Both the position numbers and the translations under genes were made by a program. From the IMG/VR virus record IMGVR_UViG_3300030397_000335, positions 1 to 57,624 of that record: 57,624 nt of DNA; one strand, 5' to 3'. The DNA comes from a virus (lineage: Duplodnaviria > Caudoviricetes). This document shows positions 1,413-56,867 of the stretch, piece after piece (position 1 is the stretch's first letter; each line of letters opens with the position of its first letter). The notes beneath the pieces are model-generated. The model made no database searches. It was not told the DNA's origin and worked only from the letters and a program-made list of their open reading frames with translations.

Positions 1413-1823
1413 ATGAAACAGCTTTTTACCATACCAAAAGACCTCTGGGGGCCTCGTCCCTGGCACGTAGCGCGAATGGAGCTTCAAGGCTTCGTCAAGC
1501 AGAACCGTGGTGCCCTAGATGAGCATGAGGTGGAGTTTGCGCGCTGGCTCTACGGACACTTCGAGATGGCGGAGCATCACACGCCGCCGTGGTCGGCTAA
1601 TAGTCCGGCCTACGTCGAATCAGTCTACAACTTCATCAACACTCAGATAACAGACATGGAAAAGCATGAGGCAGCTATAAGAAAGCTCTACAAGGAAGGC
1701 ACTACTGAACCTGAAGAGATAAAAGAATCACTTGTAGCTGATGGCCTGCGGAAGTTAACCGCTGCTTACATCCGGTCTGTAATTAGAATTATCAACAACG
1801 AGCAGCGCAAAGCTGCTGCATAA
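1413..1823 (+). CDS. Hypothetical protein
   Basis: 136 aa ORF in operon context; ends KAAA. Confidence 0.75.
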   Translation: MKQLFTIPKDLWGPRPWHVARMELQGFVKQNRGALDEHEVEFARWLYGHFEMAEHHTPPWSANSPAYVESVYNFINTQITDMEKHEAAIRKLYKEGTTEPEEIKESLVADGLRKLTAAYIRSVIRIINNEQRKAAA

Positions 1824-1841
1824 ACATACGAGGCTTTTATA

Positions 1842-2264
1842 ATGGCACGTGGAATAAACAAAGTAATCTTAGTAGGCAACCTGGGACAAGACCCTGAACT
1901 ACGCTACACAGGGAGCGGAACCGCCGTGTGCAACATGAGGCTTGCCACTAATGAATCCTACAAAGACGCTAGTGGCGAGATGGTGGACAAGACGGAGTGG
2001 CACAGCATCGTGGCCTGGAGCCGACTTGCAGAGATCTGCGGGGAGTACCTGAAGAAAGGCTCTCAAGTCTACTTCGAAGGATCATTGCAAACGCGGTCTT
2101 ATGACGACAAGGACGGAAATACCAAGTGGGTGACTGAGATCAAGGCGCGGGAGATGATGATGCTTTCAGGGCGTGAAGGAGGCGGGATGCATGCCACTAA
2201 GGAGCAACCAGCGAAGGCAGCACCATCGGGTAACTTTACTCCAGACGACGATCTCCCCTTCTAG
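1842..2264 (+). CDS. ssb: Single-stranded DNA-binding protein
   Basis: [29 protein letters not shown] motifs and acidic tip DDDLPF. Confidence 0.97.
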
Positions 2265-6959: not shown

Positions 6960-8173
6960 TCCCAGAGCTTTTTTACCTTGTCGTCCAAGTAGTCGGCAAA
7001 GTCAAAGCCTCTTAGGTATGTCTCAGTCTGCTTAATAGACGAATGACCAAGCGCCTTAGAAATATCATAGATCGTCCATCCCTCGGAAATCAGTTTTCCG
7101 GTGATACTGTGACGCGCTATATGTGTGCTAACATTCGTGGTTACATCTGCCAGTTCCATAACCTTTTTAAGTTGATCGTTGATAGCTGCGGTTCTGGACT
7201 CAATAGCACTTCTCTTAGACCATTCATTACTTATGTCATACCCCTCAAGTGCAGGGAATATGAAACGTCCTGTTTTATAAAGATCCATTATCTCACGGGC
7301 CGGGCGCATAATGAGAATGCCGTGGTTCTTTTCAGTCTTGTCCATCTCGAATTTGGCGCGTTCATCATCCCCGTCTTTAATGATGTTTTCTGGCTTAAGC
7401 TGCAACACATCAGATATGCGAATGCCAAACATGTAGTAGGCAAACATAAAGTAGTTTCTAGCATCCCAAATAGCCGAACCTTTAGTGAGATCAAGCGCAA
7501 TAATTCTGTCGATCTCCTCTTGCTTGAGATGCTCTTTGATTACATCTTTTGTCTTCAGCTTTACGTGGAAAAACGGGTTCTTGTCCTGCGAGAATTGCCC
7601 TTCTCGGATAGCAGCATAAAGAATGGTTCTGATCTTAGAGAGATTTTTGCTTCGCGTATTGAGATTATTGCCGTACTTCTCCCTAAGATGCACATCGAAT
7701 CGCCTGAGAAACTCGGGAGTGATATCATCGAAGGAAAGACCAGGCATAAACTTCTCAAGCTTGTTAAGAACAACCGTATTGCTCTTATATGTGCTAACCT
7801 GATTTCCTCGTTTGTAATCTTCTACAAACGACCTTGCATAAGTCATAAAGTCCCCGCCAGATCCCTGAGGCTTGATTCTTTCAACTACCCTGTTTCTGAT
7901 TCTGTCGCTAGTAATATCAAGGTTCTGCTTTGCAAGCTCAGTGAATACCTCATTGGCAACCTGAAGCACAGTTTGCAGATAGTCATTAAACGAACCCGAA
8001 CCTTTCATAGATTGGCGCACTGCCCTTTTCTTGTCGTTCCAGTGCCGAGGGGCTATCTTTTTGTCAAGGGGAACGTATCTACGCACGTTTTTGTGAGATA
8101 TCCTAAGCCTAAGTGGTGCCCTTCCCTCTTGGTCTTTTTGATCCTTTCTTATTTCAATTCTAAAGGTTGGCAT
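6956..8173 (-). CDS. int: Tyrosine integrase (arm-binding, SAM-like and catalytic domains)
   Basis: GIRISD (R), KT (K), HIARHS (HxxR), LGHSS, TETY; N-terminal P..LRI...W arm domain. Confidence 0.95.
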   Translation of the reverse strand: MPTFRIEIRKDQKDQEGRAPLRLRISHKNVRRYVPLDKKIAPRHWNDKKRAVRQSMKGSGSFNDYLQTVLQVANEVFTELAKQNLDITSDRIRNRVVERIKPQGSGGDFMTYARSFVEDYKRGNQVSTYKSNTVVLNKLEKFMPGLSFDDITPEFLRRFDVHLREKYGNNLNTRSKNLSKIRTILYAAIREGQFSQDKNPFFHVKLKTKDVIKEHLKQEEIDRIIALDLTKGSAIWDARNYFMFAYYMFGIRISDVLQLKPENIIKDGDDERAKFEMDKTEKNHGILIMRPAREIMDLYKTGRFIFPALEGYDISNEWSKRSAIESRTAAINDQLKKVMELADVTTNVSTHIARHSITGKLISEGWTIYDISKALGHSSIKQTETYLRGFDFADYLDDKVKKLWD

Positions 8174-8190
8174 ACCGAACGCTCAAATAT

Positions 8191-8410
8191 CGGTGCAGTT
8201 TTCGGTGCGTTACTTTCACGGTTCTTAATTGGTTTCGATTCGTTTCAATATAGCGTGGTAGATTTAGAACTGAAATACGCTGTAAACGTATATATTACAA
8301 GCACTTATTATTCCGCCCCTGACCACGACAGACTACCCGTAAGTGCTTATTTTGCTAGCATTTACGGGTTTTTTCATTTCTCCCCGGTGTGGTTTTCGGT
8401 GCGGTTTTTT
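8191..8410. other. attP region: core ATTCCGCCCCTGACCAC (8310-8326) with flanking arm-type repeats
   Basis: Core resembles the T-arm/acceptor 3' end of tRNA-Phe; CGGTG(C/T)(A/G)GTTTTCGGTGCG at 8191-8209 and 8385-8403; inverted repeat AAGCACTTA/TAAGTGCTT at 8299/8340. Confidence 0.75.
8336..8374 (+). terminator. Rho-independent terminator downstream of the att core
   Basis: ACCCGTAAGTGCT-loop-AGCATTTACGGGT followed by a T run; positioned to terminate the reconstituted tRNA. Confidence 0.75.
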
Positions 8411-8434
8411 ACTGCAACTCTACTAAAACGCACT

Positions 8435-8863
8435 ATGCCGATATATAAACCCTGTGAGGAATGTGGGACTATTTATCCTGCTCGCCCCTACCGCGTACGC
8501 CAAGGAAAAGCCCGATTTTGTAGCCGCGCCTGCCTTGCTAGGTGGATCGCCCGTGAAGTAACACCCAAAAGGGATCAGCGAGGAGATAAAAACCCAAACT
8601 GGAAAGGCGGAATATCCCAGAACCATTACCACTATAAGAAGCTTCAGAAGGAGCGCTACCCAGAGCGGGTAGAAGCAAGACGCAAGGTTCTGAGAGCTGT
8701 TCAGTCTGGCAGGTTAACACGTCTCCCCTGTCAAGATTGTGGGTCTACTGAAAATATCCAGGGGCACCACGAAGACTATTCAAAACCCCTCGAAGTTGTC
8801 TGGCTGTGCGCAAGCTGCCACCGCAGCAGACACGATGGGATGAAGTTCAACAAGGCAGCCTAA
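8435..8863 (+). CDS. Zn-finger/HNH-like endonuclease (142 aa)
   Basis: CEECG...FCSRAC, NPNWKGG, CQDCG...HHEDY.KPLEVVWLC.SCH; real start ATG 8435 inside the tracked 7043-8863 ORF. Confidence 0.85.
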   Translation: MPIYKPCEECGTIYPARPYRVRQGKARFCSRACLARWIAREVTPKRDQRGDKNPNWKGGISQNHYHYKKLQKERYPERVEARRKVLRAVQSGRLTRLPCQDCGSTENIQGHHEDYSKPLEVVWLCASCHRSRHDGMKFNKAA

Positions 8864-9946: not shown

Positions 9947-10138
9947 TTAAGCTTTGGATCTTTGGCGTTCCCATCTCTTTCGATGGGTAGCATTCTGAAA
10001 CTTCTTACCAGCGCGGGGGCTTACGATTGCTTCACCACATCCACACTGACACGTTGAGTACTTGCGCTTTCTGCGCCTGGTCTTACGAGGTTTGCGAGTA
10101 GAAACCTTTACGGTACTACTCCCCTCCCCTGCCTCTAC
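9947..10138 (-). CDS. Predicted -1 frameshift extension (63 aa, basic, CQCGCG...H) of the 10135-11106 protein
   Basis: Open -1 frame after A_AAA_AAG with no start codon of its own. Confidence 0.65.
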   Translation of the reverse strand, partial: VEAGEGSSTVKVSTRKPRKTRRRKRKYSTCQCGCGEAIVSPRAGKKFQNATHRKRWERQRSKA

Positions 10139-11106
10139 TTTTTTGTAGTCTTCTTGGTGCCTTTAGGCTTATATCCCTCAATGTGCTTGCCTACTTCTTT
10201 TCTTCTTGCTTCCACCTGTGCAACAGCTTGATCTTTAGCCTCCCCCCATCCCCAAAAGGTACCATACAGCGATGCGATTACTGAAACCTTCATCCGGTGA
10301 ATCTTGGTAGCTAGACTACCCATAAGCCGCGCTTTCTCTTCAGATTTGATCTTATCTAAGGGTGCTTGTTGTCTGCTCATCGCTTCAGCGTGTTTCCTTT
10401 TCTCCTCTATCGACGATAACACCCTTGACCTGCGCTTCTTGGTGTTTAGTAGTTCCATGCTCTTAGCAACCAGAACTACAACAGGCCCCGTAAGCGGCGC
10501 GAAGATCATGAAGTAGAACTGAGCGAAGTCCTGATTGAACCGCACAAACCCACCTCCTAGTTCATCAAGAAAGACCCATACCATCATTGCAACAACGACA
10601 AACTTATCTATACCGTTGAAGGCTCCCGCCTTCAGTCCGTCGTAAGCCGTTTTCAGGAACCACGCCCCCACTATAAGACCTATACTCGTGGAGATTGCCC
10701 ATACCCAGTTAAGCCAATCAAGCGCGGGATCTGTGAAGGCTTTGTGCTGGAATGCATACGATATACCCATCGTGCATCCAGCGATGATTATCGCAACGAT
10801 GCCCCAATTACCAATCCAGTTGAATGACTTGTACGCCTTTTCAACCTTGCTCTTGTTCGCGTTAGAAAACTCCTCTGCTTCCTGTGTCGCTTCGGCTACT
10901 AGTTCGTCTGATGTTTTGGGCTTTTTGTAGGCCGATCCGTCAGCCTTAAGAATTGTACCTGCCCCCTGACCGTGGAGCTTTACTTGTTGTCCTGGCTTAA
11001 CCTTGAAGCCGTCGTTAATCGTGATTGTGGGTGTGCTCGTTTGTCCGTCTCCTCCTGTTTTTTCGAGGTCACGATTTAGCTTTCTAGATGATTCAAAGAA
11101 AGACAC
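10135..11106 (-). CDS. Multi-pass membrane protein with a basic coiled-coil tail
   Basis: About 4 hydrophobic segments; SD GGAGGA before the GTG start. Confidence 0.85.
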   Translation of the reverse strand: MSFFESSRKLNRDLEKTGGDGQTSTPTITINDGFKVKPGQQVKLHGQGAGTILKADGSAYKKPKTSDELVAEATQEAEEFSNANKSKVEKAYKSFNWIGNWGIVAIIIAGCTMGISYAFQHKAFTDPALDWLNWVWAISTSIGLIVGAWFLKTAYDGLKAGAFNGIDKFVVVAMMVWVFLDELGGGFVRFNQDFAQFYFMIFAPLTGPVVVLVAKSMELLNTKKRRSRVLSSIEEKRKHAEAMSRQQAPLDKIKSEEKARLMGSLATKIHRMKVSVIASLYGTFWGWGEAKDQAVAQVEARRKEVGKHIEGYKPKGTKKTTKK

Positions 11107-11120
11107 TGGGGATATCCTCC

Positions 11121-11304
11121 TGCGGTTAACTTAACCGCATCCTTAAATTCCCGTACCGCCCCACTTTTGCACGTCTCGAAAACGTCCGAAGCATTTGTAG
11201 GGAGCTACCCTAAAAGAGGCTCACGGAAGCGAGACGAATACGGGATAATCAAAGATAAATTCAGCCACGGTCTTTACGTCTGCCGTGACCTATTCGAGAT
11301 TGCA
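11121..11304 (-). promoter_or_regulatory. Structured 5' leader RNA
   Basis: Nested inverted repeats TCCCGTA/TACGGGA, CGTCTCG/CGAGACG, TAGGG/CCCTA; hairpin TGCGGTTAA-C-TTAACCGCA next to the SD. Confidence 0.55.
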
Positions 11305-11417
11305 GAAATGTAATATGCACACCAAGAAATAGAGTTGCAAACTGTCACGCCTTGTGCTGGCTAAATGTCACGGATTACAACTAGCTGCTTTAAGATGGAA
11401 AAGCGTGACATCTTAGC

Positions 11418-11666
11418 TTACACCAACCACCCCTTAGCCAACAGCCACACAGCGACCCAAAGTGTTAGAGTTATGAGCACCATCCCGATCCCCATGTACA
11501 CGGCTTCAGGTGGCATGAGAGGTACTTTTTTGTCAACAATTACGTAACGCTCGTGAGCGTAAGACATACGGGAAAGCACCTTGTGTTTCGGGACGTGTAC
11601 GAGCGTACCGTCTTCCTGTATTTCGTACACGTCGCCAATTATCTTGTACCTGGATATGTCATCCAT
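11418..11666 (-). CDS. Small protein with a C-terminal TM helix
   Basis: 82 aa; hydrophobic C-terminus. Confidence 0.6.
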   Translation of the reverse strand: MDDISRYKIIGDVYEIQEDGTLVHVPKHKVLSRMSYAHERYVIVDKKVPLMPPEAVYMGIGMVLITLTLWVAVWLLAKGWLV

Positions 11667-11722
11667 AGAGGGGTGCGCTTTTCAGGGCGCATTCGTGAGA
11701 GGGGAGGGAAGTGCTTGCAGTG

Positions 11723-12556
11723 TTACTCAGCGCGTTCAGCGCTCATGTAAACCTTGTTGCTTCTTACTGTAAACTTTAGCCACCAGCCGCCAAGGGGCTT
11801 GGGAGGAAATTCCTTTTCGTTAGCCCATCCCATAGCGCCCGTGCCGATCTCGTCTTTGTAGGTAGGGCACTGGATGTGAAGCTGCTTCTTGTGACCGATC
11901 TTGTGCTGGTCATTGAGTGAGAATTGCTGGTTTTCTAGTACCCACGATTCGTGTATGTGACCTGATACCACAATATCGACATCGCGCACTATTGTTGCTC
12001 TGCGGTTGTGCTTACCAACGCCCTTGGTTACAGGGCCGCCGCCGCTGAAGCATCCTAGATTCCTGCATAGCATCTTAATCATGTCCACGTTGTTGCGCTT
12101 AAGTACGCTGGTCTCATGGTTGCCGTAGCCGATGACAGCTATGAGGTGTTTGTAAGGATCAAGGAACTCAATCGCATCTTCTAGTATCGCCCCGAAATAG
12201 TCGTCCGTCTTGTACTGGGGGAGGAGAGCGTCATAAGACTTGCGTGGATCATACTTCCCCTGCATGAGACATAGCAGGTCACCATGTATGATAATAGGCG
12301 CTTGGCGCTCTAGTGCCTGGTCTAAGTGCTTCTTGAAGAGTGTCCGGTTGCAATTGGCGTTATCGAAGTGAACGTCAGAAGCTAGAAGTATATACTGCTC
12401 CCAGCCTGACTTGTGATTCATGCGAATTACATGGACATTCTCGCTTTTCTCCTCAATACTCCACGGCAGTTGGCTCGCCTTTTGTGTATCTGTTGTCTGT
12501 AATGCTTCCGCGTCGGCAAGTTTAGGGTCTTGTCGGCGCTTTTTATTTCTTGCCAC
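11723..12556 (-). CDS. Calcineurin-like metallophosphoesterase
   Basis: SDVH, GD, GNHE and GHIH motifs. Confidence 0.85.
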   Translation of the reverse strand: MARNKKRRQDPKLADAEALQTTDTQKASQLPWSIEEKSENVHVIRMNHKSGWEQYILLASDVHFDNANCNRTLFKKHLDQALERQAPIIIHGDLLCLMQGKYDPRKSYDALLPQYKTDDYFGAILEDAIEFLDPYKHLIAVIGYGNHETSVLKRNNVDMIKMLCRNLGCFSGGGPVTKGVGKHNRRATIVRDVDIVVSGHIHESWVLENQQFSLNDQHKIGHKKQLHIQCPTYKDEIGTGAMGWANEKEFPPKPLGGWWLKFTVRSNKVYMSAERAE

Positions 12557-12582
12557 TTTTCCGTACGGGCTTATGAGAGTAG

Positions 12583-12699
12583 CTAGTCTATAATCTCAGG
12601 CTGCTTCTTTCTTGCTGTGCTCATTAGCCATCCAATGAGGAAAGCCACGATACACCACACAACAAGGGCCGCAGCCCCTATGGGTATCCATGGAGGCAT
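12583..12699 (-). CDS. Small membrane peptide (38 aa)
   Basis: MPPWIPIGAAALVVWCIVAFLIGWLMSTARKKQPEIID. Confidence 0.6.
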   Translation of the reverse strand: MPPWIPIGAAALVVWCIVAFLIGWLMSTARKKQPEIID

Positions 12700-12701
12700 G
12701 G

Positions 12702-12791
12702 TTACGCTGGTTTAGATTTGATGTACATGCGAAGCACTATCAATACCGCTGATATCAGCATGATTGTGCTTAATAGCTGCGCCCAGTTCAT
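12702..12791 (-). CDS. Small membrane peptide (29 aa)
   Basis: MNWAQLLSTIMLISAVLIVLRMYIKSKPA; strong SD GAGGAG. Confidence 0.55.
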   Translation of the reverse strand: MNWAQLLSTIMLISAVLIVLRMYIKSKPA

Positions 12792-12867
12792 TGTTTATCT
12801 CCTCGATCTTAACACACAACCAGGCAACGATCGCTGGTACTGCCGTTAAAAAGATTAGCTTTAGCAT
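12712..12867 (-). CDS. Small membrane peptide (51 aa)
   Basis: MLKLIFLTAVPAIVAWLCVKIEE...; overlaps the 29-aa ORF in another frame. Confidence 0.45.
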   Translation of the reverse strand: MLKLIFLTAVPAIVAWLCVKIEEINNELGAAIKHNHADISGIDSASHVHQI

Positions 12868-12942
12868 AGTAGGGTAGGGGTAGTGCCGGGTGTTATGTCC
12901 AACAGACCTGCGAAGAAACGCTAAGAAGTCCCAGCGCCACCC

Positions 12943-13572
12943 CTAGTTTGTAAATATCTTTTCCATCAGCTCTAGGATATCCCCAAAGCCGCCTGTAATG
13001 AATAGGTAGAATGATAGGAGCACGAAGAACAGCGCAGTAACTACGCCGCCAAGCCGCTTAGTCTTCCTAAGCTCTTTTAGTGCGCTAATTACAAAGCTTC
13101 CTGAAGTTGATTCGCTTTCTTCTTTCATCTTACCGTTGCTGTTCTTGAGGGGCTGGACAACTGCAATTGTTGTCCTAATTGTACCATCATCCTCACGGAT
13201 TACCATCACCTGAAGCACACCTGTTACCCTGTGCCCACGCTTGCTAATCCATGTCTTTGTGATCCAGTAGTCATTGCGATGACCGTCAATGATTTCCTGA
13301 AATAATTCTGTATCCCGTTCCTTGTCCTCGTCTGCGGTAATTTCCCTGAAGTGCATCTTCCTAAGCTCGTTTTCTGAGTACTCAAGAAGCCGTTCCAAAG
13401 CACGGTTGGCATGTACTGGCTTACCATCGAAGCCAACAATAGCCATTGGCACATCAAGCTTGTAAAAGACATCATCTAGAAATGCACCACCAAATGACGA
13501 TTTAAAGTTTGCTACCATTGTGGCAATGCCGGTTAGAATGGCGATCAGAAAACCACCATAGGGGGATGTCAT
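12943..13572 (-). CDS. Membrane-anchored PAS/PAC domain protein (TM-PAS-TM)
   Basis: F..LDVPMAIVGFDG....ANRAL.RLLEYS..EL....FREIT..ED...K.W..K.G...L.V.VIR..DG PAS S-box; hydrophobic N- and C-termini. Confidence 0.9.
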   Translation of the reverse strand: MTSPYGGFLIAILTGIATMVANFKSSFGGAFLDDVFYKLDVPMAIVGFDGKPVHANRALERLLEYSENELRKMHFREITADEDKERDTELFQEIIDGHRNDYWITKTWISKRGHRVTGVLQVMVIREDDGTIRTTIAVVQPLKNSNGKMKEESESTSGSFVISALKELRKTKRLGGVVTALFFVLLSFYLFITGGFGDILELMEKIFTN

Positions 13573-14063
13573 GTGTCACCTTTGAATCTATCCAGCTTTC
13601 CACGAAGCTCAGAGATAGTGTCTTCAAGCTTTTTCTTATCCTTCTCCAGATTATTGACAGTGCTTTCTAGAAGCTTGTAAGCCTCTAAAGCAGGGAATTT
13701 GATAAGGCTAAAAATGATCGGCCAAACAGCAATTGCAACAGGTACAGATATGCACGCCATAATGACTTTGGCAACTGCTACAGCAGGGTAGATACCATTG
13801 AAAACAGATACCACCAAGAGACCATGAACAATGCCACAAGACAGAATGAAAAGTCCAAAAGCAGGGATTATCCAACTTTTCTGTATATCGTGTCTTTTGT
13901 GGTAGAAGTAGACAAGGGCAATAAAGTCTGACAGGTAAGCAATGGTTGTCAGGCTATCACTTATGACGTAGCTCCAGAAAATCCACGGCTCCCACATGAA
14001 GCAGTGTCCGTGCGGCATATACATGCCCATTGTCTCGAATATTTCTCTTAAAGCCTCAATCAT
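13569..14063 (-). CDS. Stand-alone ethylene-receptor-like (ETR1-type) three-TM sensor domain with coiled coil
   Basis: MPHGHC..W, ISD...IAY, FGLFILSCGIVH (ETR1: FGAFIVLCGATH), AKV..A.IS. Confidence 0.85.
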   Translation of the reverse strand: MIEALREIFETMGMYMPHGHCFMWEPWIFWSYVISDSLTTIAYLSDFIALVYFYHKRHDIQKSWIIPAFGLFILSCGIVHGLLVVSVFNGIYPAVAVAKVIMACISVPVAIAVWPIIFSLIKFPALEAYKLLESTVNNLEKDKKKLEDTISELRGKLDRFKGDT

Positions 14064-15589
14064 TACCAGTTGGCAAACTTGGGAATTTCCATCCCGTTGT
14101 AACTATCAGGCATCGCGTCGATATCACCCTGGATGGCCCAGCGGTTATTGTTGCCGTTCGATGCATACCTGATGTTTATAAACTCGTTGTTACCGGAGTC
14201 GCCACGCGGTTCACGCTGCTTCTTGTAGTAGACAGCGCCATCAGCGTTACCGTGAATCTGTAGGTTCTCGAACGTGTACCCAGTCACCGACCCTTGTATC
14301 TGAAGACCTGAACCTTCCCAGCGGTTGTGAGCTTCATTCCAGAACTTCCTCGTCCCGCGTATCATCCCGTTAGCTACCACGCCGTTCTGTGAGTGGTGCT
14401 CTATATGCACGCCAAAGGTGCTGTTGTTGTCGATATGGAAGCCATCTAGCACCGTGGCGTAATTGTGTATGTCTAGCCAGAAGCCAGCGCCGTTGTTATT
14501 AACCGCTGTGTAGTCTTTGAATAGGCATTCATTAACGCCGTACTGACCCTTGAAGCCGCCAGCGTGCCAGAGCGGGTCAACGCCGTATCTCCAGACGTTG
14601 TGGGATGCTTCGCAGTCGATTACCTGCGTCTTATAAAGCCGCTCAGCAGCAATGCCCACGTGGCCGTGACGGTTAAAGAAGCACGACTGCACAAGATGGT
14701 TATTTCCGCGGAGTCTGATGCCTTCGCTCATGGAGTCGAGCACCATGAGGTTGGTCAGCTTCCAGAAGTCACTCTTTGTTGGCATGTGGATCGCTCCATG
14801 CACGCCAGTGTTCGCACAGTACTGGAGAACCAGGCCGTCTATCTCAACACCATCCGTATCGTCTGTAATCGTTTTCACTAGGTACTGAGAAATACCTAGC
14901 TCGACTCGCCCTGGAGTAGGGGTATCAGAAAACTTGGCCCACAATCCCTTTGGACTTTCGCTAGTGCCTTCTAAGAAGAACTCACCAGCGTTCAGCGTAC
15001 CAGCGCTATACACAGGCTGCATCGGTTTGCCATCCCACACCAGCATGTGTGGCTGCATAGCTGCACGGTGCGCGAGGCCGCGTGGAGAGGCTCCGTTACC
15101 GTGCTCATCAGCGCCATGCACGCGCTTGGCCTCGTGTTGATGGAACGTGTAAGAGAGCGGCTTAAACCACACCTCACCATTCTTTGTCCAGCCATCGCCC
15201 CAGTCAATCGTGCCCTTGATGCGTGCCTTATGCGGGTTGATAGCCTTGATTCTCGTACGTCCGCGTACCATAATGGGTTCGTAGTCGCCGTCCTTGAGCC
15301 AGATCTGCTGGCCGTTGGCATCATTAACCGCTTCCTGAGTATTGTCATCAGGGCCGATGGTGATGCCTTCACGCTGCGGAGGATTGGCAGGAGGCAGTTC
15401 GATTGGCGGGCCTGGTTCTATTGGCTTTGGCTCGATAGGTGGGGCGGGGGTGCTGCTCAGTATCTCCGCAACCCTACGTTTTAGGTCATCGATATCCGCC
15501 TCAACGTCAGAGATCCGTAATTCGTGGTTATCCACGCGCTGCTGTGATGCTAGCGGGTATGCTTTGCCGTCTGTGGTTATCTGGAGCAT
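14063..15589 (-). CDS. Right-handed parallel beta-helix protein (pectin-lyase-like fold)
   Basis: Repeating G.(I/F).. N-rich strands, GGFK, GFWLD, GVHIEH; N-terminal coiled coil and Pro-rich linker. Confidence 0.75.
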   Translation of the reverse strand: MLQITTDGKAYPLASQQRVDNHELRISDVEADIDDLKRRVAEILSSTPAPPIEPKPIEPGPPIELPPANPPQREGITIGPDDNTQEAVNDANGQQIWLKDGDYEPIMVRGRTRIKAINPHKARIKGTIDWGDGWTKNGEVWFKPLSYTFHQHEAKRVHGADEHGNGASPRGLAHRAAMQPHMLVWDGKPMQPVYSAGTLNAGEFFLEGTSESPKGLWAKFSDTPTPGRVELGISQYLVKTITDDTDGVEIDGLVLQYCANTGVHGAIHMPTKSDFWKLTNLMVLDSMSEGIRLRGNNHLVQSCFFNRHGHVGIAAERLYKTQVIDCEASHNVWRYGVDPLWHAGGFKGQYGVNECLFKDYTAVNNNGAGFWLDIHNYATVLDGFHIDNNSTFGVHIEHHSQNGVVANGMIRGTRKFWNEAHNRWEGSGLQIQGSVTGYTFENLQIHGNADGAVYYKKQREPRGDSGNNEFINIRYASNGNNNRWAIQGDIDAMPDSYNGMEIPKFANW

Positions 15590-15858
15590 TAATCAAAGCG
15601 GACATCTTTAATTGTCCACCCCTTAGAGTTTAATGGTTCTGTTACAGAATCATACCAGGCAGAAGTAACTTGCCACGGCTGCTCAGTTGTTGTTGGAGAC
15701 ACTGTTGGGTAGTACGTCCAGTTCAACTTGCTACCATATTTTAGATCAAGCAGGTTGTATAGCTCTTGAGCCTCATTGTCCGTTAATTCAAGTTTTCTAC
15801 TGTCTGAAATCTCGAATACTAATTTTGTCAGTTTTACTGGTTTGTTTTTCTTTGCCAT
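15589..15858 (-). CDS. Hypothetical protein
   Basis: 89 aa; TAATG overlaps. Confidence 0.7.
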   Translation of the reverse strand: MAKKNKPVKLTKLVFEISDSRKLELTDNEAQELYNLLDLKYGSKLNWTYYPTVSPTTTEQPWQVTSAWYDSVTEPLNSKGWTIKDVRFD

Positions 15859-16286
15859 TAGCTAACCGATTCTAAAACGTACAAGAGAAGCTCTTTAGTA
15901 AAGGCATCGCCTGGACAGGCTGTTTGCCGCTTCTCCCTATGCATAAAAATATCTTCGTGGGTCATGCCGTGGGCTTTCATCGTTGGTAGTATCCAGTCCC
16001 TACAAGCCTTCTGTAGCATTGGCAGGGGCGGGGGATCATTCATGAAGTTGCCCACAAAGCAGAATCCCGCCGCGCTGGTATTCATCCCTGGACAGTGAGC
16101 GCCGTTTTCCGTTAGTTTGCGACCGTACCGAATGACGAAACGGCCATCCACACGCTCAATCCCTGCATGGTAACCTATGTCTTTCCACCCGCGTTCTTCC
16201 TTATGAAAACGTCTGATAACTTCCCAGTTACTCTCCTCACCGTTTACCGTCGCTGAATGGTGTATTACGATGTGCCTGCAAACCAT
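15858..16286 (-). CDS. Endolysin, N-acetylmuramoyl-L-alanine amidase (Amidase_2)
   Basis: IVIHHSA, GW.DIGYH, GAHC, HRE...TACPG. Confidence 0.93.
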   Translation of the reverse strand: MVCRHIVIHHSATVNGEESNWEVIRRFHKEERGWKDIGYHAGIERVDGRFVIRYGRKLTENGAHCPGMNTSAAGFCFVGNFMNDPPPLPMLQKACRDWILPTMKAHGMTHEDIFMHREKRQTACPGDAFTKELLLYVLESVS

Positions 16287-16353
16287 ATACTACCTCGGTT
16301 TGTATGGCTTAATATACTGAAAATAAAGGATTTAAGCTTCCTTCAAAAAGTAA

Positions 16354-16429
16354 CCCCGCGCCCTGGATCTGCCCCCCAGCAAATAAGATCCGGTTGTGTA
16401 TGTGAGTATAACAACGATAGGGCGCGGGG
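16354..16429 (-). terminator. Branched hairpin/terminator between the holin-like gene and the endolysin
   Basis: 11-bp stem CCCCGCGCCCT/AGGGCGCGGGG enclosing two inner hairpins; T run follows on the minus strand. Confidence 0.55.
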
Positions 16430-16439
16430 ATGTCGTTGG

Positions 16440-16676
16440 CTATGCTTCTGGAGCTTTGCCCATCACTGATAAAATCTGGTCGCGTACTGGCTTAGAGATG
16501 GCTACTAGTATGCTGCCTAGAAATGCCACTAGCTCAGCAAACGTGATGTCACCATCGGCAAGCCAAGAAAGGTCAAGGCCCAATCCATCAGCGCCGATGG
16601 CTGGCAGGATAACAGACACTAGAGAGAAGATGATTGCTACCGCTAAGCCGCTGAGAAGAACTTTATTGGGTATCAT
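16440..16676 (-). CDS. Putative holin (two TM helices)
   Basis: 78 aa, two hydrophobic segments, directly upstream of the amidase. Confidence 0.6.
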   Translation of the reverse strand: MIPNKVLLSGLAVAIIFSLVSVILPAIGADGLGLDLSWLADGDITFAELVAFLGSILVAISKPVRDQILSVMGKAPEA

Positions 16677-39175: not shown

Positions 39176-39835
39176 TTACTCGTATTTGACGTGAGAAAGA
39201 TTAGCTTCTACGGATATAAGTCTAAGATTTGCATTCTTCTTGTGATATCTACTCCATTCGTCAGCGAGCAACTTATCGCTAAACTCTCTACCATAGCTAT
39301 TGTCTTCCGTACCCTTGATGCCAATGTCGCTAAAGCCTATCTCTTTGGAATCCATCCATCTAGACACAAGCATATGGAATGTATCTGGCGGTACATGGTC
39401 AACGTGAGAATTCTTTTCATCAAGTTTTGCTTTTGTATATGGACATATTGGGTCACCTGATAAAACCATGCGCTTAAACTCGATTATTTGCCACTTGACA
39501 ATACTTCGCATCGCAGCCAATACGTCAGACCGATGCGAAGACCCATCTATGCAAGTATGCCAACTAAAATCAGTTGAGCTATTATCTACACGATGAACAA
39601 CAAAATGGCGTGTCCTTTTCCATTCTGAGTCTAACTCGACAGTAAAAAAGTCTATACCTGCACCAATCTTTGATTCAGATTCAGGATGCTTGCTCAATAG
39701 GTCTACTAAAAAGCTGTGGTCAGGCTCGCTAATAGGCTCAAACTCGTTAACACTTTCTATAATATCCCTCACATACTGCTTAGCGGCCTTTTTTGTAGGG
39801 AACTCATAATCCCCAATAGTCACTGGTTTTGCCAT
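39176..39835 (-). CDS. DCL/DUF3223-like domain fused to an HNH-like region
   Basis: FPTKKAA, HPE...KIG.GI, F...R.D.S..DFS...C; HVDH..P...NL. Confidence 0.7.
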   Translation of the reverse strand: MAKPVTIGDYEFPTKKAAKQYVRDIIESVNEFEPISEPDHSFLVDLLSKHPESESKIGAGIDFFTVELDSEWKRTRHFVVHRVDNSSTDFSWHTCIDGSSHRSDVLAAMRSIVKWQIIEFKRMVLSGDPICPYTKAKLDEKNSHVDHVPPDTFHMLVSRWMDSKEIGFSDIGIKGTEDNSYGREFSDKLLADEWSRYHKKNANLRLISVEANLSHVKYE

Positions 39836-39839
39836 AATT

Positions 39840-40799
39840 CTATATCCGTATATAATCCACACCCGAATCAGCGAGCTTGTCCCGCTGGTGGCTGTAGACC
39901 GTTGTTGTTTGTAAGCTGCTATGACGCAGCACGGTCTTTACCTTGAGCACATCAGCGCCGCCATCGAGCATTAGCATGGCCGACGTGTGACGCAGCGTAT
40001 GTGCTCCAATTTCGCTTTGCAGCCCCGCCTTCATTACCAGGCGCTTGATAAGCCTGTAGACTGCATCGGGGCTAATCGGCTTATCCCTGTTGAAGTTCGA
40101 GAACGACAGAAACAGCGGCCCCGATGCTATCCCGTATTCCGCCTTGTGCTGCTCGATAGCCTGAATCAGATGCGCTGGCACCTTCACGCTCTGTCCCTCA
40201 CCGCCTTTCGTGTACGGCAGCATCAACACGTTATAAGCGCCCTGCATCGTGAAATGCTCACAGCACACAGCAGCAAGCTCGGATCGCCTAAGCCCCAAAT
40301 ATACCAGCATCTTCACAATCAGCTCGTCGCGGGTGTGCTCGCAGCAATCCAGCATCGCCCGCACCTGATCTTTCGACAGAAACACAACCGACGCCTCACC
40401 CTTATTCACCTTGATCTGCTGCACATCACCGTCGAAAGGGTTTTCATCGGCGCTGATTAGCTTTTTCTTTCTAAGCCAGGTGTAGAAGCCACGAATAGCG
40501 CTCATCTTCTGCGCTTTCGTGTTCTGGCTTGATGGCTCCCCCCTGTGGTTCGTTAGCTTGTTGAAATAGTCATTGACCATCTCATCAGACACGCCTATGG
40601 CCGCGCTTACATCAACCTTTTCAGTACCGAAGAAATGAACCAGCGCGTTGTAATAGGCAGAGTACGTGTTAGGCTTCTTTCTGTAGCGAACAAGGAACGC
40701 AGCAATCAAGTCACTCGACTGGTTCAGGTACTCCCGTTGTGACTGCTGTGCTGATGTTCGCCGCTGGATAGCTGTGTTATGCTGCTGGAGGTTGTTCAT
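39840..40799 (-). CDS. Second tyrosine recombinase (XerC/D-like, no arm domain)
   Basis: GLRRSE, TKGG, HTLRHT, LRHSS..TT..Y. Confidence 0.92.
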   Translation of the reverse strand: MNNLQQHNTAIQRRTSAQQSQREYLNQSSDLIAAFLVRYRKKPNTYSAYYNALVHFFGTEKVDVSAAIGVSDEMVNDYFNKLTNHRGEPSSQNTKAQKMSAIRGFYTWLRKKKLISADENPFDGDVQQIKVNKGEASVVFLSKDQVRAMLDCCEHTRDELIVKMLVYLGLRRSELAAVCCEHFTMQGAYNVLMLPYTKGGEGQSVKVPAHLIQAIEQHKAEYGIASGPLFLSFSNFNRDKPISPDAVYRLIKRLVMKAGLQSEIGAHTLRHTSAMLMLDGGADVLKVKTVLRHSSLQTTTVYSHQRDKLADSGVDYIRI

Positions 40800-44814: not shown

Positions 44815-45011
44815 AATGTGCCCGTTCTTTTTAATCTTTCCATAGCCCATCCCATCTGCCAAGCATTTGCTTTCTTGGCCCAATCATCAATAGTCTCCCC
44901 TGTTGATGCTGGCATGTTCTCGATTAGATAGTACGGATTCCTGCCCGACTTATTCAGTCCAATAGCAAAAGAATTAGCGCCTTGTCTCTGTATTTCATCT
45001 AGTGTTTTCAT
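44811..45011 (-). CDS. Rmf/CrpP-related small protein
   Basis: IQRQGA...NPY...MP..TGE....W..K..AW..GW. Confidence 0.6.
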   Translation of the reverse strand: MKTLDEIQRQGANSFAIGLNKSGRNPYYLIENMPASTGETIDDWAKKANAWQMGWAMERLKRTGTL

Positions 45012-47122
45012 GCTTTCACCAGCTCATGCTTATAAGGCCCAGATATCGTATACCGCACAGACCCAGCATCCTTAATGTCGATATGCAGCGGCACGCCCCG
45101 CTCCCTACCGCGCTGGTAGCTGGTGAGCCATACAGGGCCAAGATAGGCGGCATATGGCTGCTCAAATTCGATCTTTATGAGATGATTGTTTCGCCACAAA
45201 GAAACCGCCTCTACCTCGGACGGTTCGTTTGTGAGCAAATACCAACACCCGCCCTGTAGTGCATGTATGCGAGGGTACGGAGGATCCTGGTCGTTGCCAT
45301 TATACTCATCCCCCAGCCACAGCGGGATTGCAGCGAATAAGGATTGCCACCCGTTCACCTGTGACGCTTCGATTGTTACCTGCACCCGCTCGCTGTTTAT
45401 ATCAAAAACTTTCCTGCACTGCCCAGGCAACGGATGAAGATTAGACTCAATGGTAATTACCGCGTTCTCCCTGTCAATACCGGGAGTGATTACAGGATGT
45501 TCAGCCCTTGCCGTTGATCCAACATTACCCAGCGCATCTGTGCCGTGTACGTGTTCCACCATCCACGAATCAATATTATCCCAGGTATCCGGCGTCGAAC
45601 CCTGACTGCCACGAGAACGCCCTAGTATGCCAATGCCGCCTTTCTCCGTCCAGAAGGCTGCTAAGGAGCCACCAGAAAGCCCACACAACCCTCCGTTGTC
45701 ACGGTCAGGGTACCAGCTCAGACCGCCCGTATGGATAGCACCACCCATACCGTGCAACTGCCAAGTTACAAAGTCTTCTCCATGTTGCTCTATATAATAA
45801 TCGCTACCATAAACAGTGACAGGTTTATTGATTGTATCAGGTATTTTTTCACTCCAGAACCCCTCTGGATAGTAATCCCATTCAAGCTGCGGGATATCCA
45901 GATGCCATGACGGCTGCCAGATCTTAGGCGTTTCGCCTAGTGGCCTTGTCCACGTGCCATAAGTGTCGTTAGCCTCTTGCTCGTTAGCGCGCCGTGTCCA
46001 GACCTCAATATCTAGGAGCATCTCACCGGGCGTCTTCAGACCGTAAGGCTGATCCCAGCTATTCAGGTTGCGCCCTGTGTACCTGAGATAAGCCGCCTCA
46101 TCAGTCAGGTAGCTAACCGCAACGTCCCGTCCAAACGACCAGTGCTGGTCTCTAGGGCTTCCGTCTGCGGTTGCTGTTGCCATGCTAGACGGGCCGTAGA
46201 ACTTGTACAAGCCTTCATCGGTGGGTTCTGGGAATGTCAAGTGAGCCTTTAGTTTACTCATCTTACCAAGTGCATCAATAACAAAGTCCCAGCCTGTTGC
46301 GTGTGCTAGCCAAGCCATGTACTTCATTGACACGCCGTTGTAAGACGGGTCGAACCCGCCGCCGTGGTCTATGTAACCTGCTTCGTTGAAGTGTTTTTCG
46401 AAGAATGTACGGGCATAACTGTTGTGAACTGGGTTGTCGTGATACGTGTAGTGCATCCCAATCAGGACGGGTAAATCCATGTCGGCTTGAATGCCTGTGG
46501 GCCCTGTAGCAACAAAAGCATCGTAAAAGCTGACAAGAGCTTCTTTGTAGGCCACCCTAGCATCATTCGCCTCTACATTAAGGCGCGCAGCAAATACATC
46601 AAACACATAAGCCCAAGACGCAAAAGCAGATCCGTACGTCTGAGAAAGGTATTTCTGCCTGTTAGCAAATTCCTCGTCTGTCTCTCCCTCCCGCTGCTCC
46701 ATGATGTCATCATATGCCATCATCATGTCCACCATGCACGCCACCAACGCCCTGTTAGCTACCTGCTCGTTCTGGTGGTACGGGTTGCCGGGGTAGTCCC
46801 AGCTATACAGCCACGCCATCGCCGCTGGCTCCACGTTGGCATAGAGGCGCATGTAGATTCCGTCTTCCGCCTCTATCTCCTCAAGCGTGTAGCAGCAGGG
46901 CGCTATCCGCACGCCATTGATGTTAGCTATCCGCCGCCCTAAGTCCTCAAAGGTTATCCAGGTGCGGTAGATGTCGTCGTCTTTTAGTCGTTCTCCATCT
47001 TCGAAGTATGTTTTATTAAATGAAAGACCAGGCAGGCCGCACTCAAAATCGGATTCGTCCTTGCCTACAATCCAATTTCTAAGCGTGACCTGCCAGTCGT
47101 GATTCTGGGGTAATGTTACCAT
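45008..47122 (-). CDS. Large hypothetical protein, possibly glycan-lyase-like
   Basis: 704 aa, aromatic/acidic; helical N-half and beta-rich C-half; function not established. Confidence 0.6.
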   Translation of the reverse strand: MVTLPQNHDWQVTLRNWIVGKDESDFECGLPGLSFNKTYFEDGERLKDDDIYRTWITFEDLGRRIANINGVRIAPCCYTLEEIEAEDGIYMRLYANVEPAAMAWLYSWDYPGNPYHQNEQVANRALVACMVDMMMAYDDIMEQREGETDEEFANRQKYLSQTYGSAFASWAYVFDVFAARLNVEANDARVAYKEALVSFYDAFVATGPTGIQADMDLPVLIGMHYTYHDNPVHNSYARTFFEKHFNEAGYIDHGGGFDPSYNGVSMKYMAWLAHATGWDFVIDALGKMSKLKAHLTFPEPTDEGLYKFYGPSSMATATADGSPRDQHWSFGRDVAVSYLTDEAAYLRYTGRNLNSWDQPYGLKTPGEMLLDIEVWTRRANEQEANDTYGTWTRPLGETPKIWQPSWHLDIPQLEWDYYPEGFWSEKIPDTINKPVTVYGSDYYIEQHGEDFVTWQLHGMGGAIHTGGLSWYPDRDNGGLCGLSGGSLAAFWTEKGGIGILGRSRGSQGSTPDTWDNIDSWMVEHVHGTDALGNVGSTARAEHPVITPGIDRENAVITIESNLHPLPGQCRKVFDINSERVQVTIEASQVNGWQSLFAAIPLWLGDEYNGNDQDPPYPRIHALQGGCWYLLTNEPSEVEAVSLWRNNHLIKIEFEQPYAAYLGPVWLTSYQRGRERGVPLHIDIKDAGSVRYTISGPYKHELVKA

Positions 47123-47511: not shown

Positions 47512-48070
47512 CGTCAGCCATAGTAAAGGTTGCCGTTACATCAAGCGTATCATTGTCGTCTAGCGACTTATCCCCACCCGAGAAAGCGCCAACGCTGTAA
47601 AGCGTGCCAGTCGTGCCGCTCTTTGTGTTGTTGCTTGTCAGAAACGCACCGCCAACCGTCGTACTGTTGGTTGAGCAGGTAAACGTAGCTGTTGATGCGC
47701 TATTCGTAACGCTTTGGCTCGATACGCCAGCATCTGTCCACGTAACGCGGTTTGCTTCGTCGTATGCCGTTACTTCTGTCCAGCCTGCGTGGCTAGACAT
47801 AGTATCGCCAGCGGCTACCGTTGGCGTACCGTCTGTTAGACCCACATACCATGTGGTAATCTGCGTGCCGCCTGATAGCGTAACATCTAACAAGTGATCG
47901 AGACCAGCATTCACAACGATGTTGTGGATCTCGTCTTCCCACTTGATATTCCCATCTTTATCACGGCAAACAATCTTATAATGCCCATCTACGCGGGCAC
48001 CGCTGCGTAAGCCGTTTCTTTTTGTTACCGAAGCGCCATAATCAGCGCCCGCTTTTCCATTTGCGTTCAT
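47501..48070 (-). CDS. Putative virion/tail-fibre-associated protein
   Basis: Thr/Gly/Ser-rich; N.VVN.GL..LLD, WYVGL, DTL.VT. Confidence 0.65.
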   Translation of the reverse strand: MNANGKAGADYGASVTKRNGLRSGARVDGHYKIVCRDKDGNIKWEDEIHNIVVNAGLDHLLDVTLSGGTQITTWYVGLTDGTPTVAAGDTMSSHAGWTEVTAYDEANRVTWTDAGVSSQSVTNSASTATFTCSTNSTTVGGAFLTSNNTKSGTTGTLYSVGAFSGGDKSLDDNDTLDVTATFTMADDGA

Positions 48071-51689: not shown

Positions 51690-52670
51690 TTAGGCTCTCG
51701 GTTTAGGCTGAGAGCCTTTCTCGTTAGAGGGACCTTCCAAAGGCTTGGCATTAACCCTCAGACTGATTTGGTAGGGTCTGTCCCCCACTTTCTTCACTAC
51801 GTCTATCCTGACAGCTTCTACCGTGTCGTATCCCTCACTTGTTGCATTAAACACCATGTCTAATACCTCAAAGTCAATGAGTGATACAATAGCATCGACT
51901 AGATGCTTTGGGAGCACCCTGCCCCCACTACTATCTACGTAATTTCTTATTAAACCTTCATCGTCATTTTGGACGCTCTCTATGTGGGTAGTTTCACCTA
52001 CATCGGGTGAGACATTGTATAAAAAGGCTGGTTTAGTGTCATCCTGGTAAGCGACATTAGCAACAGCTTCAACCTGATCCCTACTTGTACCAGTACTAAC
52101 AATCGCCAGCCACCCCCCTAGCTCCTTAGACTGTACATAGTACCACGGTTTCGAACGCCACGCCAACCACATGGGAATACCGTTCGGCTCGTAGTACCTG
52201 GCTTCCAGCCTCGTTGATGGGTTACCAGAAAGCAGTGAACGCTCGTACTCTAAAGAATCCTCATTGGTGAAGACCTCACTGATCTTCTTGCCTATCAGTG
52301 GCACATGCTCTTCAATCTCGAACGTCTTTATATAGGCATCGGTAGCCAGGATAAAGCGCGCCTCCTTATCAAACATCGCAACGCTGTAAGGATTCTCAGC
52401 CAAGAAGGCTTCGTAGTACGGTAACGATTCGCCGTTCTCTAGTGGATATACCTCGCTCTCGTTCTGGATGTGTCCGAGCTGCTGCTTTGCCCTGTACTTG
52501 CCGTAACTAGCTTTTTCTATTAAACCTTCATGCATCATCCTCACCACTAGCTGTCTTACCTGATTCCCACCTATCCCCGTCGCCGCTGAAATCTGCTTAG
52601 GCGACATAGCACCTCCCCTATCAGCTAGTAGCTCTAATATAGCATCTTTGTGTGTTTTGTCTTCCTGCAT
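51690..52670 (-). CDS. Winged-helix + PAS domain regulator in the repressor position
   Basis: N-terminal wHTH (SPKQISAATGI...G.Y); PAS F...P.SVAMFD...IG....EVF...W..W...PW...GG; divergent from the early operon. Confidence 0.85.
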   Translation of the reverse strand: MQEDKTHKDAILELLADRGGAMSPKQISAATGIGGNQVRQLVVRMMHEGLIEKASYGKYRAKQQLGHIQNESEVYPLENGESLPYYEAFLAENPYSVAMFDKEARFILATDAYIKTFEIEEHVPLIGKKISEVFTNEDSLEYERSLLSGNPSTRLEARYYEPNGIPMWLAWRSKPWYYVQSKELGGWLAIVSTGTSRDQVEAVANVAYQDDTKPAFLYNVSPDVGETTHIESVQNDDEGLIRNYVDSSGGRVLPKHLVDAIVSLIDFEVLDMVFNATSEGYDTVEAVRIDVVKKVGDRPYQISLRVNAKPLEGPSNEKGSQPKPRA

Positions 52671-56262: not shown

Positions 56263-56867
56263 CAAAAAAAGAGGAGATTGATAAGGCCAAAGAATCAGAT
56301 AGACATCTCTTATCCGCAAGGGTATCCCATCTCTACGGGGTGCCAGAAAGTGAAATACAAAAGATGGTTTCAGACACTCTTTCTAAATATTTCCATGTCA
56401 GACGTGAAGTACTGAGTGAAGATGGATCAAGCCGGATTGATGTGATTGCAGTACATAAATCGGACAATAATGGCAATTTTCCTATAGGGATTGAGATTAA
56501 AGCGGTTGGTAAAAAGCGTGGTGTTGAAATAGGCGATTGGATAAACCAAGCATATAAGTATAGTCAACTTCCTTTCAGAGGCTTTGGTAAAGTTGCAGTC
56601 TTTCTCTTTCCACAAATAAGCGGTCTTTATTTAGAAGAAGGATCTGAAGTGTCTAGACACAACTTGACTGGACGCCAAATATGGGAAGGCGGGCATCACA
56701 ATGTAGCTACTATGCTTAGTAGCTTTGACCTTGGTGAATTGCAATTCTACAAGACATGGAAGGGAAAGTGGAGATTGAGGCTGGTTTATGCCGCAAAAAG
56801 AATATGGGAACAGCACAATGACATCTTTCAGCCTAACAATCTTACTAACCTTAAGAAGGCAGCATGA
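56259..56867 (+). CDS. Putative PD-(D/E)XK nuclease
   Basis: REV...RID...GIEIK...QA..Y. Confidence 0.65.
   Translation: MTKKEEIDKAKESDRHLLSARVSHLYGVPESEIQKMVSDTLSKYFHVRREVLSEDGSSRIDVIAVHKSDNNGNFPIGIEIKAVGKKRGVEIGDWINQAYKYSQLPFRGFGKVAVFLFPQISGLYLEEGSEVSRHNLTGRQIWEGGHHNVATMLSSFDLGELQFYKTWKGKWRLRLVYAAKRIWEQHNDIFQPNNLTNLKKAA

Follow-up and report, generated by a model that had tools for sequence, protein, structure and literature searches.

The ethylene receptors AzoEtr1 of Azospirillum brasilense, which binds ethylene, and SynEtr1 of Synechocystis are fused proteins in which an ethylene-binding domain (EBD) is followed by a PAS domain and a histidine kinase (PMC11819568). PAS and ethylene-binding domains are usually read as inputs to kinases or cyclic di-GMP (c-di-GMP) enzymes. 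In the stretch of phage DNA considered here (IMG/VR record IMGVR_UViG_3300030397_000335, Caudoviricetes, analyzed over its full 57,624 bp, hereafter the window), both occur as small, output-less membrane proteins that are chained to lysis genes, apparently as an exchangeable cassette: a 209-amino-acid (aa) PAS protein, encoded on the minus strand at positions 12943 to 13572, and a stand-alone protein of the ETR1_N family encoded just upstream of it. Our tentative reading is that the PAS protein, tethered to the membrane, serves on the cytoplasmic side as one half of a sensor pair that has no kinase and that influences late events in the membrane, most likely when lysis occurs; this is the account we favor, held at somewhat less than even confidence. 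Each of the two domains is well known; what is new is the variant in which a phage carries both as a pair of membrane-tethered proteins without output. In our literature search no publication dealt with ethylene-binding domains of phages and none joined PAS with phage holins or lysis cassettes; a broader search gave papers without the PAS term.

The PAS gene and its parts are the following.

12943..13572, minus strand: gene of the PAS protein, 209 aa, with a transmembrane (TM)-PAS-TM layout; an open reading frame (ORF) supported by PAS models, HMMER matches, the family alignment A3 and an AlphaFold2 model
13504..13560, minus strand: N-terminal hydrophobic helix, residues 5 to 23 (Kyte-Doolittle mean 1.62; a model helix at residues 4 to 21 with a low predicted local distance difference test score, pLDDT)
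13147..13470, minus strand: PAS core, residues about 35 to 142 (Pfam stretch 35 to 141; AlphaFold2; Foldseek)
12994..13053, minus strand: C-terminal TM helix, residues about 174 to 193 (Kyte-Doolittle mean 2.39 over 174 to 192; model helix 174 to 193)

We are confident that the 209-aa protein carries a genuine PAS domain. Its Pfam scores are marginal, with PAS_4 (23.1 bits, cut-off 23.1) and PAS (22.6 bits, cut-off 22.6) both at an E value of about 1e-4 and PAS_3 and PAS_9 slightly below their cut-offs, but they are backed by an exhaustive phmmer (HMMER) search of 1.84 billion representatives, which matched 12,554 proteins at E <= 1e-3 and 1,095 at E <= 1e-10. The AlphaFold2 model, computed with the family alignment as input, has a pLDDT of 87 to 95 across residues about 40 to 140 and contains the five-stranded antiparallel sheet flanked by helices that, together with a profile match, marks the PAS superfamily (strands 43 to 46, 52 to 55, 101 to 109, 115 to 126 and 132 to 141; PAS N-cap helix 28 to 38). 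Foldseek placed this model with the solved PAS domains 3mjq, 3olo, 2gj3 and 8px4 (probability 1.0, target-normalized template modeling score about 0.8). Searching the solved structures with alignment A3 gave two weak PAS matches only, the ESM Atlas gave generic PAS clusters only, and no cofactor motif was recognized in the protein. LOV photochemistry needs a conserved adduct-forming cysteine, and because the sequence contains no cysteine at all, the protein cannot use it.

The TM-PAS-TM anatomy put forward in the original prediction is thus borne out by PAS profiles, fold model and hydrophobic flanks, although the N-terminal flank is the weaker of the two. That helix is rich in Gly, Ala, Ser and Thr, as in a moderate TM or membrane-associated segment, and is poorly modeled (pLDDT 44 to 56). 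The C-terminal TM helix is preceded by a basic juxtamembrane helix (five Lys/Arg) and followed by a short acidic tail (three Asp/Glu), and between the two hydrophobic segments lies a folded domain of 110 residues. Because the Lys/Arg cluster precedes the C-terminal TM helix, the positive-inside rule would place the PAS domain in the cytoplasm and the short acidic tail on the outer side of the membrane.

Among the best 150 of the 12,554 phmmer matches, 139 were sensors of at least 509 aa and 11 were short proteins of 162 to 252 aa (P0002, P0019, P0023, P0040, P0050, P0054, P0055, P0065, P0069, P0082 and P0091) that align to nearly the entire query at 33 to 71% identity; a further search added two more short members, P0162 and P0163. 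A Kyte-Doolittle scan detected the C-terminal TM segment in all of the full-length family members (11 of 11) and a hydrophobic N-terminal segment in 9 of the 12 sequences scanned; both segments were found in 8 of 11 family proteins, and P0040, P0054 and P0091 had the C-terminal one only. Two to five Lys/Arg residues stand within 15 residues ahead of the C-terminal TM segment in 10 of 11 members, P0040 having none. Metagenomic assemblies are the source of every member, the contigs being as long as 65 kb (P0069), with 48 kb for P0055, 24 kb for P0002 and 22 kb for P0091. The PAS protein therefore belongs to a small, nameless family of short, mostly TM-PAS-TM proteins from metagenomic contigs only, and this family looks old and diverse, long resident in phages rather than freshly captured.

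Beyond this family, relatives were sparse and distant. No match to the region or to either protein was found by blastn and tblastn in 50,697 phage records, and IMG/VR yielded nothing to pattern scans built on either protein or on alignments A1 and A2, while the scan with alignment A3 returned three distant PAS-TM loci only. A pattern scan with alignment A4 of one genome per prokaryotic species retrieved 31 PAS relatives in frames of 302 to 1,320 aa, none of which (0 of 31) has the short TM-PAS-TM layout. Identity to cellular PAS domains was 27 to 41% in that genome scan and 22 to 35% among the long sensors listed from phmmer.

The partner gene overlaps the start of the PAS gene.

13569..14063, minus strand: stand-alone ETR1_N (ethylene-binding-domain-like) protein, 164 aa (PF25487; model helices; alignment A1)
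13569..13572, minus strand: ATGA stop/start overlap of the ETR1_N gene and the PAS gene, read in the sequence

The ATGA coupling of the PAS gene to an ETR-like gene had been noticed before, and the identity of that gene is now secure, its match to the ETR1_N profile (PF25487) having an E value of 5.1e-20 (72 bits, cut-off 27). In the model, three TM helices (residues 26 to 56, 65 to 89 and 92 to 120), as expected of this domain, are followed by a 37-residue C-terminal coiled-coil helix (126 to 162). Its Phage_holin_2 score stays below threshold (18.1 bits against a cut-off of 32). Eight short stand-alone ETR1_N relatives (139 to 179 aa, 46 to 64% identity; P0004 among them, on a contig of 36.5 kb) make up, with the partner, a nine-member phage-type family. 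The copper site of ETR1_N domains is made by a Cys and a His of helix II, an Asp of helix I and a Lys of helix III (PMC10266040, PMC11819568). The partner holds all four, its D36, C76, H80 and K99 being spaced as D35, C75, H79 and K98 are in AzoEtr1; within the phage-type family the Cys and the His are kept in 9 of 9 members, the Asp in 7 of 9 (Asn in the other two) and the Lys in 8 of 9. Every member (the partner and P0004 to P0011) also keeps an N-terminal motif, M-P-H-G-x-C.

Positions 46 and 47 are different: they read Ile-Pro in 80 of 80 cellular ETR1_N proteins as against [DN][FY] in 9 of 9 short phage-type proteins, so that the partner lacks the Ile-Pro pair of helix I. This pair is said, in work of Wang et al. 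from 2006, to belong to a set of seven residues on which the binding of ethylene by AtETR1 depends, and because it is swapped in the phage-type proteins, their ligand may differ from ethylene. The solved-structure search with alignment A1 (the ETR1_N family) gave no match. A metagenome scan with the same alignment yielded, among the matches listed, cellular fused sensors only, at 28 to 42% identity; the closer short ETR1_N relatives are absent from those matches.

The two phage genes have separate histories, since none of the best 150 PAS matches carries an ETR1_N-like domain (0 of 150) and, of 80 cellular ETR1_N proteins, no more than 2 gave any match to the PAS domain of the phage (best E value 8.1e-5). 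Ten cellular ETR1_N proteins were checked; their outputs include histidine kinase, GGDEF, EAL and HD-GYP domains, and a PAS domain directly follows ETR1_N in 4 of the 10. Two consist of ETR1_N and PAS only, and one of ETR1_N only. The output-less ETR1_N-PAS proteins, of about 326 aa, are encoded on contigs L011 (10001 to 10981) and L019 (2740 to 3717), and the 215-aa ETR1_N-only protein on L003 (1266 to 1910); because these contigs are cellular, kinase-less ETR1_N forms are not confined to phages. An origin of the PAS gene as a piece of a recently captured host kinase was also considered, and was rejected because no cellular PAS domain is more than about 41% identical to it.

Output domains were sought across the whole record by a six-frame hidden Markov model (HMM) search, which found no HATPase_c, HisKA, Response_reg or GGDEF domain, whereas the same searches gave matches in 12 to 14 control genomes. 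The earlier statement that the genome holds no kinase, GGDEF or receiver domain is therefore well founded: the hallmarks of histidine kinases and two-component systems (HisKA, HATPase_c, receiver) are lacking in the PAS protein and in the record, and on the side of c-di-GMP signaling the record has no GGDEF domain, EAL and HD-GYP not having been searched record-wide.

The surroundings of the pair include the following genes.

16440..16676, minus strand: 78-aa protein containing two hydrophobic stretches, immediately ahead of the amidase gene; candidate holin by position only
15858..16286, minus strand: Amidase_2 endolysin (PF01510, E value 5.3e-11; phrog_822, amidase, lysis, E value 5.2e-21)
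15589..15858, minus strand: 89-aa protein of no known family, with a one-base overlap with each neighbor
14063..15589, minus strand: right-handed beta-helix protein, 508 aa, tail fiber or depolymerase-like (PF13229, E value 2e-9)
12712..12867, minus strand: 51-aa protein with an N-terminal hydrophobic segment, 75 nucleotides (nt) downstream of the PAS gene and outside the cassette borders

Read along the minus strand, the order is tape measure, an 882-aa protein, the 78-aa protein, Amidase_2, the 89-aa protein, beta-helix, ETR1_N and PAS. All the way from the amidase gene to the PAS gene, neighbors are joined by overlapping stop and start codons, with 1-nt overlaps through amidase, 89-aa, beta-helix and ETR1_N genes (the beta-helix stop overlaps the ETR1_N start as TAATG), and the ETR1_N/PAS pair forms the last two genes of this overlapping string. 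The placement of the PAS gene in a lysis operon is thus roughly right: the chain of overlaps does lead to the amidase, but the amidase itself lies two genes upstream of the pair. The 78-aa candidate holin has no family match in Pfam or PHROGs. The 508-aa protein that sits between endolysin and sensor pair has a coiled-coil, proline-rich N-terminus; it may be a depolymerase or tail fiber positioned after the lysis gene. Beyond the PAS gene on the same strand follow the 51-aa membrane protein (no family match in Pfam, PHROGs or PADLOC), a metallophosphoesterase, and membrane proteins of 82 and 323 aa. The stretch from 10135 to 12867 (minus strand) accordingly holds membrane proteins without known family (the 51-aa protein, the 82-aa protein with a C-terminal TM helix and the multi-TM 323-aa protein), and the metallophosphoesterase among their genes is SbcD-like (phrog_7339).

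The record is present in three aquatic-metagenome sequencing runs, all from one study; no RNA run is listed among those that contain it. We compared the Logan contigs of these runs over positions 12700 to 14100; the runs may be the source of the record and therefore do not count as independent samples. Over that interval, gene junction included, the three runs showed no base differences and no insertions or deletions (indels), but the assembly graphs branch at both borders of the pair.

12893..12922, no strand: left cassette border, graph branch (in run X1 a unitig of depth 9.7 departs at 12922)
14035..14064, no strand: right cassette border, graph branch (unitigs of depth 21.7 and 63.6 in run X1 and of depth 11.7 in run X2)

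In X1 a unitig of depth 963 covers exactly 12893 to 14064, that is, the pair and its borders. What three other X1 unitigs (depths 9.7, 21.7 and 63.6) have in common with the record is limited to border 30-mers or to the final part of the beta-helix gene. The minor unitigs at the right border share only 14035 to 14064 or 14063 to 14100 and then diverge; in X2 the divergence is at 14063 (depth 11.7 vs. 397). Divergence at the right border was thus seen in two of the three runs (X1 and X2), and the left-border branch and the pair-only unitig in X1 only. These graphs indicate that minor phage variants exist in which the ETR1_N/PAS pair is absent or replaced, and, as they branch at the borders of the pair, they suggest that the pair is an exchangeable accessory cassette. 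No repeats flank the cassette borders.

The record itself is that of a siphovirus-type phage, with terminase, portal, major head and tape-measure genes. A tyrosine integrase is encoded at 39840 to 40799 on the minus strand (Phage_integrase, E value 2.8e-22), from which we take the phage to be temperate; a DUF3223 protein lies just downstream of it, at 39176 to 39862. CheckV puts the completeness of the record at 69%, and no terminal repeat was found in it, but when its ends are joined (56864 to 57624 plus 1 to 1372) a Prim-Pol ORF that is open at the 3' end of the record runs in frame into an AAA_25 ORF at its start, giving a single open PrimPol/AAA_25 (PrimPol-helicase) frame of 710 aa. Because the ends join in this way, the record probably represents a complete, circularly permuted genome despite the CheckV figure. 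Elsewhere in the window, a minus-strand block between the integrase and a regulator-like gene (51690 to 52670) encodes a 974-aa protein with Laminin_G_3 (concanavalin-like) repeats (48070 to 50994, minus strand) and a 704-aa protein without family match (45008 to 47122, minus strand), and a 606-aa protein with an HNH endonuclease domain at its C-terminus is encoded on the plus strand at 7043 to 8863. The 405-aa ORF that overlaps this last gene on the opposite strand is probably spurious.

In the reading we favor, the PAS and ETR1_N proteins would make up a sensor without a kinase, both located together in the inner membrane. Of the two, the ETR1_N protein would serve as a membrane input or as an input for a metal or small molecule, and the PAS protein as a cytoplasmic input or adaptor without enzymatic or DNA-binding output. 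Output would then be by protein-protein contact in the membrane and not by phosphotransfer, and this contact would most likely tune the time at which the holin fires, in the manner of an antiholin. We infer the physical interaction of the pair, any ligand and the effect on lysis, the lysis role from gene position only; a structure-based complex prediction with alignments A1 and A3 scored 0.00, which counts neither for nor against interaction. If the pair does tune lysis, it would constitute a new route that couples phage release to an environmental or metabolic signal, and it would offer a minimal two-protein system for the study of signal relay by sensor domains that lack an enzyme.

Other phage loci lend this reading partial support. 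In L117, a 54.8-kb IMG/VR record, a muramidase/PG_binding endolysin is followed by a 92-aa protein (its N-terminus, as we read the sequence, resembles a lipoprotein signal), a 128-aa membrane protein and a stand-alone ETR1_N protein (149 aa, E value 9.5e-15), which is overlapped by a gene for a TM and coiled-coil protein with weak PHROG matches to "hol-like" and "Rz-like spanin" families. In L119, P2-type tail genes are followed by a stand-alone ETR1_N protein, a TM and coiled-coil protein and a Phage_lysozyme2 protein. The distance from the stand-alone ETR1_N gene to the muramidase endolysin (L117) or to Phage_lysozyme2 (L119) is thus no more than about 2 kb, and small membrane proteins lie around it. 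In L084, a 168-aa PAS-TM protein stands directly ahead of a DUF5675 gene and a membrane protein. The family member P0082 and the ETR1_N-like P0005 are each on a contig of 42,513 bp and very probably share that contig, which would be a second co-occurrence of PAS and ETR1_N. The association with lysis genes that was to be expected elsewhere is therefore found in part, through the amidase chain here and in L117, L119 and L084, but fails in L082/L083, where a 234-aa PAS-TM-coiled-coil protein lies beside baseplate gp25. The signal-gated holin/antiholin-like timer of the original prediction is neither established nor refuted by these loci.

These last loci belong to a set of observations that weigh against the favored reading. 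The partner of ETR1_N in L117 has no PAS domain and is not homologous to the PAS family. The ETR1_N proteins of L117 and L119 are mutually related (53% identical), so that the two loci amount to little more than one independent case, and the Phage_lysozyme2 protein of L119 may belong to the virion instead of acting as an endolysin. The L084 record (45.5 kb, rated 100% complete) has the PAS-TM protein but no ETR1_N, and with L082/L083 it shows that the PAS/ETR1_N partnership is not universal among phages. P0002, the closest relative of the PAS protein at 71% identity, has a sequence that ends ahead of the C-terminal TM helix. A simple splitting of a host ETR1_N-PAS sensor was rejected as the origin of the pair, the PAS domains of 80 cellular ETR1_N proteins barely matching that of the phage. 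In addition, the amidase already has a candidate holin, the 78-aa protein, adjoining it, and late-operon ends are where morons that have nothing to do with lysis are classically found.

The alternative that survives best is interference with host signaling, in which the phage proteins would form mixed oligomers with PAS or ETR1_N kinases or c-di-GMP enzymes of the host. We regard it as unlikely, and would give no better chances to its consequence, the silencing or mis-activation of host sensors in late infection or in the lysogen. The PAS domain does match thousands of PAS domains of sensor kinases, cellular ETR1_N domains do drive histidine kinase, GGDEF, EAL and HD-GYP outputs, with PAS next in line in 4 of the 10 checked, and the elements that could dimerize (the PAS N-cap helix at 28 to 38 and the coiled coil at 126 to 162) are kept while the outputs are lacking. 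Identity to the cellular proteins is low in both domains, however, which would make for poor mimicry in a specific heterodimer; the family is conserved on phage-like contigs and looks long resident, and translation so tightly coupled to that of late genes agrees with a late role at the membrane. The proposal of a decoy that poisons host kinases is weakened by the same distance to cellular PAS domains and by the age and diversity of the phage family.

A lysogen-serving moron is, in our estimate, a little less likely still. The pair would here be a membrane sensor for superinfection exclusion, abortive defense or lysogenic conversion, unrelated to lysis timing, and possibly, at the same low estimate, would work with the neighboring small membrane proteins. 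The phage is temperate, the cassette appears exchangeable and sits at the end of the late operon, and the region from 10135 to 16676 is rich in membrane proteins. L117, moreover, has a ParE toxin and a helix-turn-helix (HTH) antitoxin in the same neighborhood (1527 to 2222, minus strand), encoded on the other strand between the endolysin and the cluster of membrane-protein and ETR1_N genes. Against this, PADLOC defense models matched none of the eight local proteins, the pair included (0 families), and a consensus promoter/terminator scan, in which sites were no commoner than in shuffled sequence, placed no terminator-like site at the cassette borders and its sole minus-strand promoter-like site near them within the ETR1_N gene. 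The overlap of the ETR1_N start with the beta-helix stop likewise argues for late co-expression rather than expression from the prophage.

More ambitious than the favored reading is the notion that the pair forms a "lysis clock input," which would read an external small molecule or gas together with the internal state of the cell and directly gate holin triggering. We think this distinctly unlikely; in it, the ETR1_N membrane domain would contain copper and have a ligand pocket altered by the exchange of Ile-Pro for [DN][FY]. Were it true, the pair would represent a new class of signal-dependent antiholin and give viral ethylene-binding-type domains their first function.

That the PAS protein is itself a holin or pinholin, with hole formation gated by the PAS domain, is very improbable. 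Its hydrophobic helices at both ends and its chaining to the endolysin string make the protein appear holin-like, but no holin family in Pfam or PHROGs matches it, the 78-aa protein with two hydrophobic segments already occupies the usual holin position, and the variability of the cassette argues against an essential lysis gene. To our knowledge, a 110-residue folded domain between helices, combined with a weak N-terminal segment, is unlike any holin class. Finally, it is hardly credible that the pair is a functionless remnant, a captured host sensor gene that a frameshift has split and that is now in decay, for although the order of ETR1_N and PAS mimics that of fused cellular sensors, other contigs encode stand-alone ETR1_N-like proteins (139 to 179 aa) as well as short PAS proteins whose N-termini correspond, the junction reads identically, without indels, in all three runs, and the architecture is conserved at 33 to 71% identity.

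Compared with known systems, the sensor pair shares with AzoEtr1 and SynEtr1 the order of a three-TM ethylene-binding-type domain, a helical linker and a PAS domain. It departs from them in that the two domains are on two proteins, the PAS protein has membrane anchors of its own and the record lacks a kinase or receiver; the PAS domain is not specially related to those of ETR1_N proteins, and the Ile-Pro pair is replaced.

The phage proteins of L084 (168 aa) and L082/L083 (234 aa) have PAS cores homologous to that of our protein (hhalign probability 99.7 and 99.3, 117 columns), and all share the arrangement of PAS, linker and single C-terminal TM helix without an output domain. These relatives differ in having no N-terminal hydrophobic helix and no ETR1_N found in their records, as well as in their neighbors, which are DUF5675 and a membrane protein in the first case and baseplate gp25 in the second.

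Stand-alone bacterial PAS proteins, short LOV proteins included, likewise consist of one PAS domain and the helices on either side of it; they lack an effector domain and act through protein contacts. Stand-alone PAS clusters were the nearest feature-based neighbors in the ESM Atlas, and short LOV structures were among the Foldseek matches; the phage protein is set apart by its membrane tether, its phage origin and its lack of cysteine.

Antiholins and lysis-inhibition regulators (lambda S107, T4 RI and RIII) are non-enzymatic, in some cases membrane-bound, and set the time of lysis by binding holins, T4 RI coupling lysis inhibition to a signal. Lysis inhibition is documented for T4 and N4. 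Our literature search found no lysis regulator containing a PAS domain, and the PAS protein shows no relation to the antiholins in sequence or fold. It resembles them in being non-enzymatic and in being encoded near lysis genes.

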